A stretch of 64,000 nucleotides of DNA, from the NCBI GenBank assembly GCA_963848295.1, contig CAWKDB010000011.1:512001-576000 (forward strand), written 5' to 3'. This document shows, piece after piece, positions 114-4,130 of this stretch. The position numbers and the translations under genes were made by a program. The stretch comes from an uncultured delta proteobacterium. GTDB taxonomy: Bacteria; Myxococcota_A; Polyangia; Haliangiales; Haliangiaceae. Under the pieces are notes generated by a model. The model was given only the letters and a program-made list of their open reading frames with translations. It was not told the DNA's origin and ran no database searches. The first letter of the stretch is position 1; every line of letters starts with the position of its first letter.

Positions 114-1142
114 ATGGCCGAGCACCGCCCGTTCCCGCCATCGCCGCGCCGGCGAGCCCTCGCGCGAACCGCCGGGCTGTCGGGGGCGAGCCCGATCGCG
201 ACCGCGGCGATCGGCTGGGTTGCCGCGACGATCGCGATCGCGGCGATCGCGCGCACGGCGGCGTCCGCGCTCGGTGGCTCGGTCGCGGCGGCGTGCTCTG
301 GCTCGGCGACGGCGGTGCAGCCCGGCGCGATCGTCGGCGCGATCGCCGCGGTCGCCGGTCCGCTGCTCGGCGCGGTCGCGCTCGCCGCGATGATCGCGCA
401 CGTGGCGCAGACCGGCGCGTTGTGGTCACCGCGCCGCAAGATCGCGGGCGCACCGAGCTTGCCCGCGGGCGCCGGGCCGCGCGTTCGGCGCGCGGGCCTC
501 GAGCTGTCGTTCGCCGCCGCGATCGGCGCGGTCGGCTTCGGCTGGTTGTGGACGAGCGCGCCGCGGCTCGCCGTGCTCGTCGATGGAACCGCCTGGCCAT
601 CCGGCGATGCGGCGGGTCGCGAGGCGCTGCTCGGCGCCGGTGCGACGCTCGTCGCCGGCGCGCTCACCGCGTTCGCGATCGGTTACGTCGTGCTCGGTGC
701 GATCGATGCGCTGACCCGCCGGCTCGCGCTCGGTCGAGCGCTCGCGATGACCGCTGCCGAGCGCCGCGAGGACGACCGCCTGTCTGCGGCCGACCCGCGC
801 TGGCGAGCCGCGCGCGCCGCCGCCGCGCGCGATGGCCTCGGCGATGCGATCGCGGGCGCGAGGCTCGTGGTGCTCGGTGACGACCTCGCGGTCGCGGTCG
901 CCTGGGACCCGGTCCGCTGCCCGAACCCGATGCGCATCGCGAGCGGTCGCGCCGCGCGCGCCACGCAGATCATCGCGTACGCCCGGCGCTATCAGATCGC
1001 GGTCCATCGCGAGCCGGCGCTCGCAACTTTGGTGGCCCGGAACACGGTGATTTCCGAGGAAGCGTGGCCTCGGTTGGCAGAGATCATCGCGGCTTGCGCT
1101 GGGAGTGACAACACTATTGCGGTGCGCCAACGCGAGAGGTAA
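114..1142 (+). CDS. Divergent FlhB/SctU-like type III export switch protein
   Basis: HRPFPPSPRRRALARTAG resembles the FlhB N-terminal KTE.PT.KR...AR..G; hydrophobic TM region; MTAAERREDDRLSAADPRWR resembles MSKQEVKDE.K..EGDP..K; AVAVAWD...P.RIASG and ARRYQIAVHREPALA match the FlhB C-domain; NPTH motif absent. Confidence 0.75.
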   Translation: MAEHRPFPPSPRRRALARTAGLSGASPIATAAIGWVAATIAIAAIARTAASALGGSVAAACSGSATAVQPGAIVGAIAAVAGPLLGAVALAAMIAHVAQTGALWSPRRKIAGAPSLPAGAGPRVRRAGLELSFAAAIGAVGFGWLWTSAPRLAVLVDGTAWPSGDAAGREALLGAGATLVAGALTAFAIGYVVLGAIDALTRRLALGRALAMTAAERREDDRLSAADPRWRAARAAAARDGLGDAIAGARLVVLGDDLAVAVAWDPVRCPNPMRIASGRAARATQIIAYARRYQIAVHREPALATLVARNTVISEEAWPRLAEIIAACAGSDNTIAVRQRER

Positions 1143-1152
1143 TACGCCCCGC

Positions 1153-2109
1153 GTGAAGCTCTCTCAGCTCGTATGCGCATCGCTCTTGATCGTTCCCGCC
1201 GCCGGTTGCATCGATACCGCCAATACCTCGGACACCGAGGGCGACAGCAGCTCGACGACGTACGTCAACGTCACCGACACCGACAGTGCCGACGGGCTGT
1301 ACGACCTGCAGGGCAAGCTCGCCGCCGAGTTCGCGGAGACCTGCGGCGATACGTTCTGCGAGGGCGAGTACTCGAACCTCACGCCGCTCGGCCTGCAGTG
1401 CTCGGTCACGAGCAAGCGCGGCGACATCCACGATTGCGCGTGGACGTTCGGCGCATCGCAGTTCCTCGTCAACCCGACCGCCGCGACGCTCGAGATCAAC
1501 GCGCCCACGTTCACGTGCCACTTCGCGCCGAAGACCTCGACCACCGCGGCGAAGCTGTTCGCGCTACTCGACGGCGCCGACTCCGCGATCGATACGGTGC
1601 TGCCCGGTTCGTCGACCTCGATCTACGACAGCTTGGTCGATTGTTTCCAGCACCCGGACGGCGCGACGCCGATCTCGATCGTCGCGACCCCGACCCCGAC
1701 CTACGTTGCCGCGAGCGATTACTACGTGAGCGCGGCCGGCAAGGCGAAGTGGGCGGCGGCTCAGAAGGCGCTGCTCGACGGCTTCAACAACGTCTGCGGC
1801 GACACGTTCTGCGGCAGCGACTATGGCGATCTGCAGTCGCTCGGCTTCGAGTGCTCGATCACCAAGTCGACCGGCAACATCAAGTCGTGCGCGTGGGTGT
1901 TCGCCGGCAACTTCGCGGAACCGGACAAGACCGGCAAGCTCGGCGAGACGATCCAATCGTGGAACTGCGCGGTCCACGCGCCGACCACGCTCGCCGCGAT
2001 GATCACGACGTTGACCGCGACGCTGCCCGCGGGCAGTGAAGACCCGATCCATCGCACGCTCGACGGCCTGAACTCGGCGTACGACGACATCGGCAACTGC
2101 CTGCCGTAG
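1153..2109 (+). CDS. Cys-rich putative lipoprotein with two tandem CGDTFC domains
   Basis: GTG start at 1153 gives a signal peptide ending AAGC (lipobox-like); internal duplication CGDTFCEGEYSNL..LQCSV..CAWTF / CGDTFCGSDYGDL..FECSI..CAWVF. Confidence 0.7.
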   Translation: MKLSQLVCASLLIVPAAGCIDTANTSDTEGDSSSTTYVNVTDTDSADGLYDLQGKLAAEFAETCGDTFCEGEYSNLTPLGLQCSVTSKRGDIHDCAWTFGASQFLVNPTAATLEINAPTFTCHFAPKTSTTAAKLFALLDGADSAIDTVLPGSSTSIYDSLVDCFQHPDGATPISIVATPTPTYVAASDYYVSAAGKAKWAAAQKALLDGFNNVCGDTFCGSDYGDLQSLGFECSITKSTGNIKSCAWVFAGNFAEPDKTGKLGETIQSWNCAVHAPTTLAAMITTLTATLPAGSEDPIHRTLDGLNSAYDDIGNCLP

Positions 2110-2123
2110 CGACGGCGCGCTGA

Positions 2124-2798
2124 TCAACGCACGAGCTGTGCGATCGCGATCGCGAGGGTCGCGACCAGGCTCGCGGTGATCATGACGAGGGCCGCAGGTG
2201 CTGCTGCGGCGGCAGGAACGAAACGCGCGCTGCGGCCGGCGACTCGCAGGCCTGCACCGGCGGCGAGCTCGACGACCGCGGCGGTGAGCAACCACGGGGT
2301 CGCGAGCCGGATCGCCGCGGGGATCAGCGCACCGAGCGTGGCGAGCACGCCGGGGGTGGTCGTGGCGAGCGCTGCGCCGGATGGCAACGCGCGATGACTG
2401 TCGAGCACTGCGCGGATCACCGCGATGTGGCCATCGAGCCCGACGAACACCGCCGCGGCGAGCACGGCGAACAACGCGGCGTACGGCCCACCCGCTCCCG
2501 CACCGAGCTGGCTAGAAGCGGAGACGCGATCGACGAGCCGGCCGGCGGTCGCCGCCGCGACGAGCGGGAGCGACGCGATCACACCGAGGGCGGTACCGAG
2601 CACGAGCTCGCGCGCGGCGACGAGCCAACCGAGGTCGACCGCGGCGCTCGCGTCGACCACCATCAGCGCGGTCCACAGGCCGGTCGCGAGCGCGAGCGCG
2701 GCCTGGGCGATGCGCGGGATGCCGCCGACGAGCGAGGTCAACACGAACACCGCCGCTGCTCCACGCAGCGACAGGATCGCGAGCGCCGCTAGCGTCAT
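2124..2798 (-). CDS. Divergent FliR/SctT-like export gate subunit
   Basis: ATG at 2798 overlaps the stop of the fliQ-like gene; very hydrophobic; RELVLGTALG, AGRLVD and VFVGLDGHIAVI resemble FliR motifs; last in the O-P-Q-R order. Confidence 0.75.
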   Translation of the reverse strand: MTLAALAILSLRGAAAVFVLTSLVGGIPRIAQAALALATGLWTALMVVDASAAVDLGWLVAARELVLGTALGVIASLPLVAAATAGRLVDRVSASSQLGAGAGGPYAALFAVLAAAVFVGLDGHIAVIRAVLDSHRALPSGAALATTTPGVLATLGALIPAAIRLATPWLLTAAVVELAAGAGLRVAGRSARFVPAAAAAPAALVMITASLVATLAIAIAQLVR

Positions 2799-3070
2799 CC
2801 GCGCGCCGTGCCGATCGTCGTGATCAGCGGCCACAACGTCGCGGCGAACGCCTGCAGCTGGTGTGCGATCGCCGGCGCGAACAACGCGATCGCGACCCCG
2901 ACCGCCGCGACTCGAGGCGCGAGCGCGACCGCCGGATCTTGGATCTGCGTAAAAGCCGCGACGAGCCCGGTGACCACACCCGCGATCACCGCTGCGACCA
3001 GCAACGGCGCCGCGAGCAACAGCGCGAGCAACGCGCCTTCGCGCATGATCGCGACGAGGCCAGACGTCAC
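2795..3070 (-). CDS. FliQ/SctS-like export gate subunit
   Basis: 91 aa from GTG at 3070 (overlapping the fliP-like stop); LAAPLLVAAVIAGVVTGLVAAFTQIQD...APR matches FliQ/SctS. Confidence 0.85.
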   Translation of the reverse strand: MTSGLVAIMREGALLALLLAAPLLVAAVIAGVVTGLVAAFTQIQDPAVALAPRVAAVGVAIALFAPAIAHQLQAFAATLWPLITTIGTARG

Positions 3071-3741
3071 GCGTAGCCTCTGAGCAACGCATCGATCAGC
3101 AGGCGCCAGCCGTCGACCGCGACGAACAGCAGCAACTTCAACGGCAGCGCCACGACCTGCGGCGACGTCGCCTGCAGCCCGAGCGCGGCGAGCGCTAGCC
3201 CGACGATCAGATCGATGATCAGAAACGGCACGAAGATCACGACCGCGATCGCGAACGCCTGGCGCAGCTCGGTCGTCACGAACGCCGGGCCGAGCACCCA
3301 CAGCTCGCGGCCGTCGGCTTGACGGCCCATCGTATGGGCGAGCTCGGTGAACGTTTCGCGATCCTTTGCGCCCGCGTGCTTGTCGAGAAACTCGCGCAAC
3401 GGCTCCACCGCACGCTCGGCGGCCGCGAGCTGGCCCTGATATTCGGCGGGCACCAGCTCGTGCAGCGCGTTGTCGAGAGAGCCCGGGGCGGGCGCCGGCG
3501 CGACCTCGGTGCTCTGCGCAGCCCTGGCCATCGCCAGCCCGACCGGCGCCATCACGAAGAACGTCAGCACGAGCGCGAGCCCGGTGACGACGAGCCCCGA
3601 CGGTGCGTCGGGCGCGCCGATCGCGTTGCGCACGAGCGACAGCACGACCGAAATCTTCACGAAGCTAGTCAGCACCAAGACGATCAGCGGCACGATCGCG
3701 ATCGTCGCGAGCAGCGCCGCGTTGCCCAAGCCGCCGGTCAC
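3067..3741 (-). CDS. FliP/SctR-like export gate subunit
   Basis: GTG start at 3741; motifs TSFVKISVVLSLVRNAIG, LALVLTFFVMAPV, PAFVTTELRQAF, FVPFLIIDLIV, LPLKLLLFVAVDGW; no cleavable signal peptide (SctR-like). Confidence 0.9.
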   Translation of the reverse strand: MTGGLGNAALLATIAIVPLIVLVLTSFVKISVVLSLVRNAIGAPDAPSGLVVTGLALVLTFFVMAPVGLAMARAAQSTEVAPAPAPGSLDNALHELVPAEYQGQLAAAERAVEPLREFLDKHAGAKDRETFTELAHTMGRQADGRELWVLGPAFVTTELRQAFAIAVVIFVPFLIIDLIVGLALAALGLQATSPQVVALPLKLLLFVAVDGWRLLIDALLRGYA

Positions 3742-4130
3742 GGCGTCTCGCCCGGTGGCGGCGCCGGCGGCGGTGGGCGCTTGCGGCCGAGCGCGCGGGC
3801 CACGAGGTCGGCGAAGCCCGGGCGCTCGACGACGCGCGCTCGCACCTCGCTGCCATCGAGCTCGGACAGCACCGACAGGCCCATCTCGCTCGTCCCGACG
3901 AGCAGCGTCTTGCCCGCGACCTCGACGACGTAGAGCGATCGCCGAGGCTCCAGCGGCAGGCGCGCGACGACGTCGAGCACGTGCGCGCCACGCGTGCGGC
4001 CGGTCGCCATCCATCGGCCGAGCACGCGCACGGCCACGACCGCGACGATGCTGACGACGCCGAGCACGATCAGCGAGGTGACGAGCAGATCACCGTAGCC
4101 AGCTCCACCAGACACGCCATTCCCGGGCAT
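3738..4130 (-). CDS. FliO-like export gate assembly chaperone
   Basis: One N-terminal TM, then LDVVARLPLEPRRSLYVVEVAGKTLLVGTSE, typical of the FliO cytoplasmic domain; directly upstream of the fliP-like gene; ATG at 4130 preferred as start. Confidence 0.8.
   Translation of the reverse strand: MPGNGVSGGAGYGDLLVTSLIVLGVVSIVAVVAVRVLGRWMATGRTRGAHVLDVVARLPLEPRRSLYVVEVAGKTLLVGTSEMGLSVLSELDGSEVRARVVERPGFADLVARALGRKRPPPPAPPPGETP

Follow-up and report, generated by a model that had tools for sequence, protein, structure and literature searches.

The window analysed in this study, a 64,000-nucleotide stretch from an uncultured member of the Haliangiaceae (G000:C11:512001-576000), carries near its left end an export-gate locus from the family of type III secretion systems (T3SS), in which a fliO-sctR-sctS-sctT operon is accompanied by an inverted sctU gene. 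G000 is the source genome (7.78-Mb assembly, 85% complete; contigs labelled C2, C10, and C11), and positions given without a contig are counted within the window. This locus is probably the gate of a scattered, non-flagellar, needle-less T3SS, the other genes of which lie at five further loci of the same genome. The system would export proteins into the periplasm in a minimal form that has no switch. The genes belong to recognized families, are present and lost together among relatives, evolve under purifying selection, and show deletions throughout the lineage, defined here as the genus including G000 and three named metagenome-assembled genomes nested in its clade in the SctR tree (21 loci examined, 18 of them from the genus).

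FliO, SctR, SctS, SctT, and SctU each scored above the Pfam cut-off (Table 1), and membership in the five gate families was, therefore, not due to chance; PDB matches also linked SctR, SctS, SctT, and SctU to export-gate proteins. The top NCBIfam model of SctR was EscR/YscR/HrcR (above cut-off), and its nearest named relative was from a "Haliangiales bacterium" (72% identity). In the structural model of SctU, the C-terminal domain matched those of EscU, YscU, and FlhB (root-mean-square deviation of 1.4-2.2 Å). FliO, the family of which assists assembly of the gate, possessed one membrane segment without an AMIN domain, with a mean identity of 69% to lineage orthologues. A preliminary description of this DNA had reported five intact frames, an operon with 4-nt overlaps on which the flhB-like gene and a lipoprotein gene converge, a position between galU and the ribosomal cluster, and no other T3SS or flagellar gene in the window; all of this was recovered. 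The overlaps were found at 3/3 junctions, galU and priA lay just left of the window with sctU divergent from galU and opposite to the operon, the ribosomal cluster lay right of the gate (separated from fliO by one further lipoprotein gene), and a filtered scan of the 64 kb with hidden Markov models (HMM) detected no further T3SS or flagellar gene. The inversion of sctU was common to 16/16 family-level loci having both sctT and sctU, while sctU still followed sctT in G025, G040, G029, and G036. On the other hand, the term "stand-alone" did not hold, because second copies or homologues of sctV, sctN, sctQ, sctJ, and sctO were present elsewhere in the genome, as was a flagellar cluster that has a gate of its own.

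Table 1. Coordinates of the gate locus, its altered motifs, and genes elsewhere in G000
Feature	Position	Strand	Basis or remark
fliO-like gene, 130 aa	3738-4130	-	PF04347 (FliO), E 2.5e-11
sctR (FliP family), 224 aa	3067-3741	-	PF00813, E 2.6e-55
SctR methionine gasket replaced: Leu189-Gln190-Ala191 for three Met	3169-3177	-	Alignments
sctS (FliQ family), 91 aa	2795-3070	-	PF01313 (Bac_export_3), E 7.3e-15
sctT (FliR family), 224 aa	2124-2798	-	PF01311 (Bac_export_1), E 3.3e-12
sctU (FlhB family), 342 aa	114-1142	+	PF01312 (Bac_export_2), E 1.9e-23
NPTH self-cleavage site of SctU, reading Leu-Gly-Asp-Asp (254-257)	873-884	+	Alignments
sctV (second FHIPEP protein)	G000:C10:4726408-4728264		Best score with Sct models
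sctK-like gene, then sctL::sctN fusion	G000:C2:1471452-1473664		ATPase best with Sct models
sctQ (third FliMN_C protein)	G000:C10:265228-266220		Best score with Sct models
Short sctJ, 161 aa	G000:C2:751057-751542		HMM built from Myxococcaceae loci
sctO	G000:C10:3112271-3112714		HMM from Myxococcaceae loci, E 5e-9; FliJ model, E 4.7e-5
Orphan FHA-domain TadA-like ATPase (L244)	G000:C2:620297-622561		
Cys-rich predicted lipoprotein, 318 aa	1153-2109	+	Between sctU and sctT
ExeM-like lipoprotein, 526 aa	4254-5834	-	Upstream neighbour of fliO; weak NF033681 match, E 1.1e-5

The flagellar cluster of G000 (C10:3355-3392 kb) contained FliO, FliP, FliQ, FliR, FlhB, FlhA, FliI, and FliF, whereas the non-flagellar set comprised the gate locus and five other loci far from this cluster. 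The flagellar FHIPEP, ATPase, and FliMN_C copies scored best with flagellar models, and the second copies with Sct models. SctJ was short: its first ring domain was missing, while the lipobox, the other ring domain, and the membrane anchor were retained. Its assignment was based on TIGR02544 (E 0.0011), on HHalign (99.2% to Myxococcaceae SctJ, in an alignment including four full-length SctJ rows), and on PrgK and EscJ as the first structural matches of its model; relatives in other families possessed full-length SctJ with the same C-terminal signature. The Pfam family YscJ_FliF, when used as a SctJ finder, matched only the flagellar FliF, and a custom HMM was needed for the short protein. As separate observations, the flagellar cluster (G000:C10:3355000-3392200, in part L060) appeared to be full, with flagellin, hook, rod, rings, motor, and an M-V-M gate; it was flanked by sugar-modification genes, and at least 10 genus relatives had similar clusters. 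G000 also possessed two separate pairs of F1-type ATPase alpha and beta genes, located at C10:1894196 and C10:3741716.

An HMM of SctL matched residues 1-50 of SctN, the second ATPase. This in-frame fusion of the SctL N-terminus to SctN was found in 16/17 genus relatives that were read (split in G011) and also in G183, while sctL was a separate gene in G025, G029, G032, G035, G036, G040, and G050. According to a review, SctL contacts SctQ through its N-terminus and SctN through its C-terminus (PMC10333785); since the N-terminus is fused to SctN, the C-terminal half may be unneeded. A sctK-like gene preceded the ATPase gene, where other genomes have a gene before sctL; its protein belonged to no known family and had no usable ESM Atlas match. 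Walker A, GERGRE, and Walker B of SctN were conserved in 16/16 copies, and the charged membrane motifs of SctV were retained in 6/6 lineage copies with one Lys-to-Arg change. Residues for proton coupling, ATP hydrolysis, and substrate gripping thus appear to persist. The cytoplasmic domain of SctV was ~50 residues shorter in 6/6 lineage copies, and seven further rows from Polyangia showed this shortening, whereas G025 and Myxococcaceae did not; we take the lost part to be subdomain 2, near the chaperone dock. Weak HMM matches to the SctV C-domain (C10:4438277) and SctP (C10:4319963) were dismissed as noise because they were antisense to other genes.

A complex of SctQ (residues 180-330) with the first 48 residues of the SctL::SctN fusion was predicted with a score of 0.46 (best control: 0.02), and the runs agreed in at least 96% of contacts with a partner pLDDT (predicted local distance difference test) of at least 81. 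The mark applied was reached by 116/157 solved complexes and 2/215 mismatches, among which scores of 0.60 or lower were given by only 18 of the 157 solved complexes and by both mismatches; this prediction, therefore, argues weakly for the contact. Complexes resembling SctQ-SctL have already been solved structurally, so that the result may stem from the memory of the predictor. Separately, a likely internal start (Met256) preceded the final domain in the sctQ gene at L058:7229-8221, resembling sctQ genes that yield two products.

In the SctV tree and in concatenated SctR-S-T-U-V trees, the split between flagellar and non-flagellar proteins received a value of 100 in the Shimodaira-Hasegawa-like approximate likelihood ratio test (SH-aLRT), and the second set of G000 was non-flagellar; the identity between its own FliP and SctR was 44%. 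Approximately unbiased (AU) tests on 22 rows rejected the grouping of G000, G023, and G183 with the flagellar gate of G000 itself (p 8e-9) and with myxobacterial flagellar gates, as well as a direct sister relationship to the short locus (p 0.009) or the long locus (p 1.7e-6) of Myxococcaceae, and accepted nesting within the scattered Polyangia set (0.50). The trees place the gate in a Polyangia lineage of the myxobacterial non-flagellar T3SS, as the kinship to needle-less systems claimed earlier had suggested. Two concatenated trees grouped the Polyangia lineage with the short locus; this candidate sisterhood was given up, since AU tests with fast rows removed or recoded (5000 replicates, fast searches) rejected neither the short nor the long locus. 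All trees were based on fast or quick searches (SctR: quick only), with uneven composition and thin sampling of canonical injectisomes, and 6/31 rows were dropped from one concatenated tree. Non-flagellar T3SS loci in Acidobacteriota records (L087, L090, L098, L099, and L084) grouped near the myxobacterial ones.

The distribution of the system was tallied by hand in a panel of 24 genomes, consisting of 23 of the 24 drawn genus genomes (G010 left out) and G148. Orthologues were accepted at an identity above the flagellar-paralogue level; a 48% sctV match in G022 and a 56-residue piece in G017 were not accepted. sctR was present in 16, sctV in 20, sctN in 21, sctQ in 20, sctJ in 20, and sctO in 21 genomes, and all six markers in 15/24. 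None of the six was found in G017 (94% complete) and G024 (93%), in which the galU-priA contig continued to rplQ/rpoA without a gate gene (positive control: L042). The remaining misses fell in fragmented assemblies, and the G013 contig stopped just upstream of galU. Every piece of the system kept the same housekeeping neighbours in G025, which belongs to another family of the order, and fliO-sctR was located near priA in several class-level genomes; the scattering is, therefore, old. In six Polyangiaceae-like records (L055, L144, L145, L146, L102, and L115), only fliO-sctR was found near priA, and sctS, sctT, and sctU were elsewhere or too divergent; the system may be even more scattered there.

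Selection was estimated from the ratio of nonsynonymous to synonymous substitution rates (dN/dS; Nei-Gojobori) in four close pairs of relatives, and all values were well below 1 (0.05-0.33). In the G006-G002 pair, fliO, sctR, sctS, sctT, and sctU gave 0.12, 0.08, 0.05, 0.08, and 0.17, respectively, compared with 0.05 for priA and 0.03-0.16 for flagellar paralogues, while sctJ and sctO gave 0.28 and 0.32. The values of sctR, sctS, and sctT were 0.11-0.15 in the G008-G015 pair, and two more distant pairs ranged between 0.08 and 0.33. The gate (0.05-0.17 in the two closest pairs) thus resembled the flagellar paralogues (0.03-0.33), and sctR was as similar to relatives (68% identity) as priA at the same depth (69%). 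The gate genes are under purifying selection.

Several motifs of the gate were rewritten, as the preliminary description had stated, and the alignments revealed that the changes are fixed across the lineage. The gasket of SctR was Met-free in 18/19 readable lineage copies, and NPxH of SctU was found in 0/16. The plug of SctT spanned 18-25 residues in 18/18 lineage copies; in every copy used for comparison, whether from Myxococcaceae or flagellar, it spanned 30-31. In an alignment to solved FliQ, Asp45 and Arg53 of SctS corresponded to Glu46 and Lys54, and Asp and Arg occupied these positions in 19/19 lineage copies. Both glutamines of the TQxQ motif of SctS were kept (the first in 19/19 and the second in 15/19 lineage copies), and a third Gln was replaced; by an inferred mapping of residue numbers, the former may be the glutamines described as binding the substrate backbone (PMC7943601). 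The M-V-M gasket, Glu/Lys pair, full plug, and NPTH were all retained in 12/12 flagellar controls. Among other Polyangia, Asp was found in G025, L070, L078, L083, and G036 although their gasket, plug, and NPxH were intact; all four changes occurred in G029 and G183, and G040 had lost only NPxH. Because several Polyangia combine Asp with the other three intact motifs, Asp was judged to be the earliest change, and in this sample, in which kin are not independent, the Asp bridge seems to have preceded gasket loss. In more distant families sampled at the phylum level (L153, L154, L159, L152, and L155), further fliO-P-Q(-R) sets were strongly rewritten and had a Met-free gasket; these are possibly independent cases of such stripping.

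These changes have counterparts in laboratory gates. The first and last Met of the gasket are reported to be 99% conserved in ~2500 FliP homologues, loss of the plug to cause leak with function remaining, FliQ E46D to improve the function of GGG, AAA, and SSS gaskets, natural Asp at FliQ 46 to accompany variant gaskets, and leak to cost fitness (PMC8239009). The lineage thus combines the laboratory suppressor (E46D-like) with the very defect that it suppresses, which fits an exporter with a looser seal without proving one.

In the reading that we prefer, the products of the gate genes, SctV, SctJ, SctQ, SctO, and the ATPase would assemble into one inner-membrane machine, in which SctQ pods may hold the ATPase via the fused SctL N-terminus, and the ATPase and SctV would drive unfolded proteins through the SctR/SctS/SctT pore into the periplasm. 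Cleavage at NPTH is the textbook switch of the export gate. Since a rod or ruler was not found, the self-cleavage site is missing, and ~50 residues of SctV are gone, an ordered switch from early to late substrates would be lacking, and one substrate class would be handled. The Asp/Arg bridge of SctS would tighten the pore, as the laboratory suppressor does, and the Met-free gasket and short plug would be tolerated for this reason. With respect to the substrates, we tentatively propose enzymes that are deployed against prey, either lytic or acting on the envelope, and that would reach the surface along a path not involving the Kil pilus. A fuller version of the preferred reading falls somewhat short of being probable: a working minimal exporter, spread over six housekeeping loci and operating without the Met gasket, full plug, SctU self-cleavage, rod, first SctJ ring domain, and free SctL, would serve predation or tasks at the envelope, without Kil, in a group of soil myxobacteria that is abundant. 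It would mark the final stage of a stripping that proceeded stepwise in Polyangia, with the Asp bridge arising ahead of gasket loss.

Several points weigh against an exporter. With so many parallel losses, the machine could have ceased to move protein; triple non-Met changes of the gasket are reported to nearly abolish function and to cause leak (PMC8239009, PMC7943601), and E46D itself increases leak (PMC8239009). Export, assembly, and expression are presumed from sequence, and the sctK-like gene is named from its position only. The loss in G017 and G024, which shows that the system is dispensable, was probably a single event because these genomes look closely related. dN/dS covers pairs of relatives, since synonymous sites in pairs with G000 were near saturation (proportion of synonymous differences, pS, 0.42-0.51), and SctJ and SctO evolve faster (0.26-0.32). 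The gate proteins are rich in Ala, and this composition may bias the trees. SctI and SctP are fast-evolving and may be missed in a genome that is 85% complete, in which no search was aimed at SctD.

The strongest competitor, which we consider to be unlikely, is a scattered machine that has stopped exporting, with the gate, SctV, ATPase, and pods serving as a membrane scaffold, a sensor, or a conduit for small molecules or ions. In its favour, the gasket, plug, and cleavage site have all been lost, along with part of SctV and one ring domain of SctJ, and no rod was found; such changes raise leak in the laboratory (PMC8239009), and there is a report of the gate core acting as a platform for nanotubes (PMC6456723). 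However, the ATPase, SctO stalk, pods, and substrate-gripping glutamines have been kept under selection, and a passive channel would need none of these; leak would also be a cost to fitness. The earlier suggestion of a repurposed inner-membrane channel, to which this competitor adds partners, does not hold in the form of a lone gate, because SctV, the ATPase, SctQ, SctJ, and SctO were kept and lost with the gate. Slow decay after the loss of a Tad/Kil partner, with motifs eroding under relaxed selection, appears less probable still. It would account for the failure to find CpaB in 22/24 genus genomes, the long stem branches leading to the genus, two genomes that have lost everything, and SctU, SctJ, and SctO being the fastest parts; nevertheless, the frames are open, dN/dS is well below 1 in four pairs, sctR is as conserved as priA, the new motifs are themselves conserved, and the in-frame sctL::sctN fusion persists in 16/17 relatives. 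The preliminary description had likewise argued against simple decay, and the dN/dS values and fixed motif changes agree with it. A spare or accessory flagellar gate, arising by duplication of the flagellar genes of G000 itself, might be suggested by the presence of FliO, by the slightly higher scores of SctS and SctT with flagellar NCBIfam models, and by the flagellar cluster itself, but is scarcely credible given the AU tests, the occurrence of flagellar copies only in G024 and of non-flagellar sctV and sctN only in G003, G014, G023, and G148, and the FliO known from myxobacterial non-flagellar systems (PMC12403147).

Partners of the preferred exporter outside the six loci were sought in the same genomes. 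With the G025 protein as the query, SctI was undetected in 23/24 genus genomes and in G000, in which an HMM likewise did not detect it, and SctP gave only a weak match in G000 (E 0.005). A profile of CpaB, a Tad/Kil marker, with rows drawn from six genomes, had no match in G000, and matched 2/24 genus genomes and 11/16 outside the genus; RcpC was not found, and no TadB/C-like match was seen. An orphan FHA-domain TadA-like ATPase was kept in 23/24 genus genomes with no Tad platform found; because these included G017 and G024, its co-loss with the T3SS was rejected. Its ATPase half was less conserved outside the family. G000 possessed three secretins, one in a pilMNOPQ-like cluster and one beside GspE/PilC-family genes; none was at the T3SS loci, and no search was aimed at the needle protein. 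Chaperone HMMs matched ~100 generic TPR proteins.

Among known systems, T3SS* of Myxococcus xanthus (long locus, MXAN_2434-2464) shares FliO, SctR, SctS, SctT, SctU, SctV, SctJ, SctQ, SctL, SctN, and SctO with G000, as well as the placement in the non-flagellar myxobacterial branch. No dedicated secretin or needle has been found for T3SS* (PMC10433427, PMC12075869), and none of the three secretins of G000 was at a T3SS locus. The two differ in several respects: T3SS* is one cluster rather than six loci; long-locus copies (6/6 readable) keep the gasket as M-x-M, the bridge as Glu/Lys, the plug at full length, and NPDH/NPEH, all of which are changed in G000; and the long locus has a two-domain SctJ, a separate SctL, and SctI, compared with a one-ring SctJ, a fused SctL, and no SctI found. 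T3SS* is recruited by Kil and is needed for lysis (PMC12075869), and the second system of M. xanthus is described as taking no part in killing (PMC12403147). Since CpaB was not found here, the Myxococcus mechanism is not simply transferable. The link to prey killing in the preliminary description is weakened, since CpaB was not found in G000 or in 22/24 relatives and the trees do not make the gate a direct sister of T3SS*; kinship to myxobacterial needle-less T3SS stands. As a side observation, a second small gene after sctU in the Myxococcaceae long loci L065-L068, L074, and L086 encoded a stand-alone SctU C-domain, which starts near the cleavage site and is without the motif.

The short locus of Myxococcaceae, T3SS(2), presumably the MXAN_5643-5654 type, shares the gate order with fliO. 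Its gasket is down to one Met (M-Q-T/S, 7/7 readable), but NPTH (8/8) and the full plug, both missing in G000, are kept, and it is clustered (I-J-Q-fliO-R-S-T-U-V) instead of scattered. The flagellar FliOPQR-FlhB gate has a homologous fold and the fliO-P-Q-R order, together with the M-V-M, Glu/Lys, full plug, and NPTH that the second gate of G000 lacks. The T3SS of Chlamydiales is also scattered, but injects eukaryotic cells with a secretin and needle and belongs to an unrelated lineage; the accounts consulted report no comparable stripping of its gate.

Myxobacterial needle-less T3SS were once described as confined to Cystobacterineae with a conserved gene order (PMC3459982), whereas sctV and sctR copies in Polyangia (PMC11509652) and counts of T3SS homologues in Myxococcota bins (PMC11821767) are now on record; non-flagellar FliO from Haliangiales and Polyangia is already tabulated as well, with the label "T3SS" in 2/3 UBA2376 rows and in many Polyangia rows of Dataset S2 of PMC12403147. 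Features of Kil have been described (PMC8460266, PMC10433427), and Haliangiaceae-like bacteria have been named dominant soil micropredators (PMC10433427). In the literature searched, which did not extend to subscription papers, no scattered Polyangia system, SctL-SctN fusion, or Met-free uncleavable gate was described. The present data widen the myxobacterial needle-less T3SS to a scattered Polyangia form, which cluster-based finders are likely to miss, and uncouple it from the Kil pilus in Haliangiaceae-like bacteria. A lineage that dropped the gasket, NPTH, and plug, but kept the ATPase and SctV under selection, also provides natural variants bearing on the minimal needs of an export gate and the purpose of its switch.

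Two lipoprotein genes flank the operon. The 318-aa protein matched no Pfam or NCBIfam family above cut-off and had no homologue in any gate locus fetched, and the sctT-sctU gap varied among relatives (7-4655 bp); on these grounds, it is a passenger at a variable site, outside the system. It had an apparent two-fold internal repeat, and its closest ESM Atlas clusters were unnamed Myxococcota proteins. Regarding the ExeM-like lipoprotein, no tblastn match was obtained at the same site in G017 and G024, in which a different long gene was located. Of the other gate loci fetched, 9 contained homologues, and in several relatives the gene was conserved close to fliO; the protein carries an acidic disulfide repeat.

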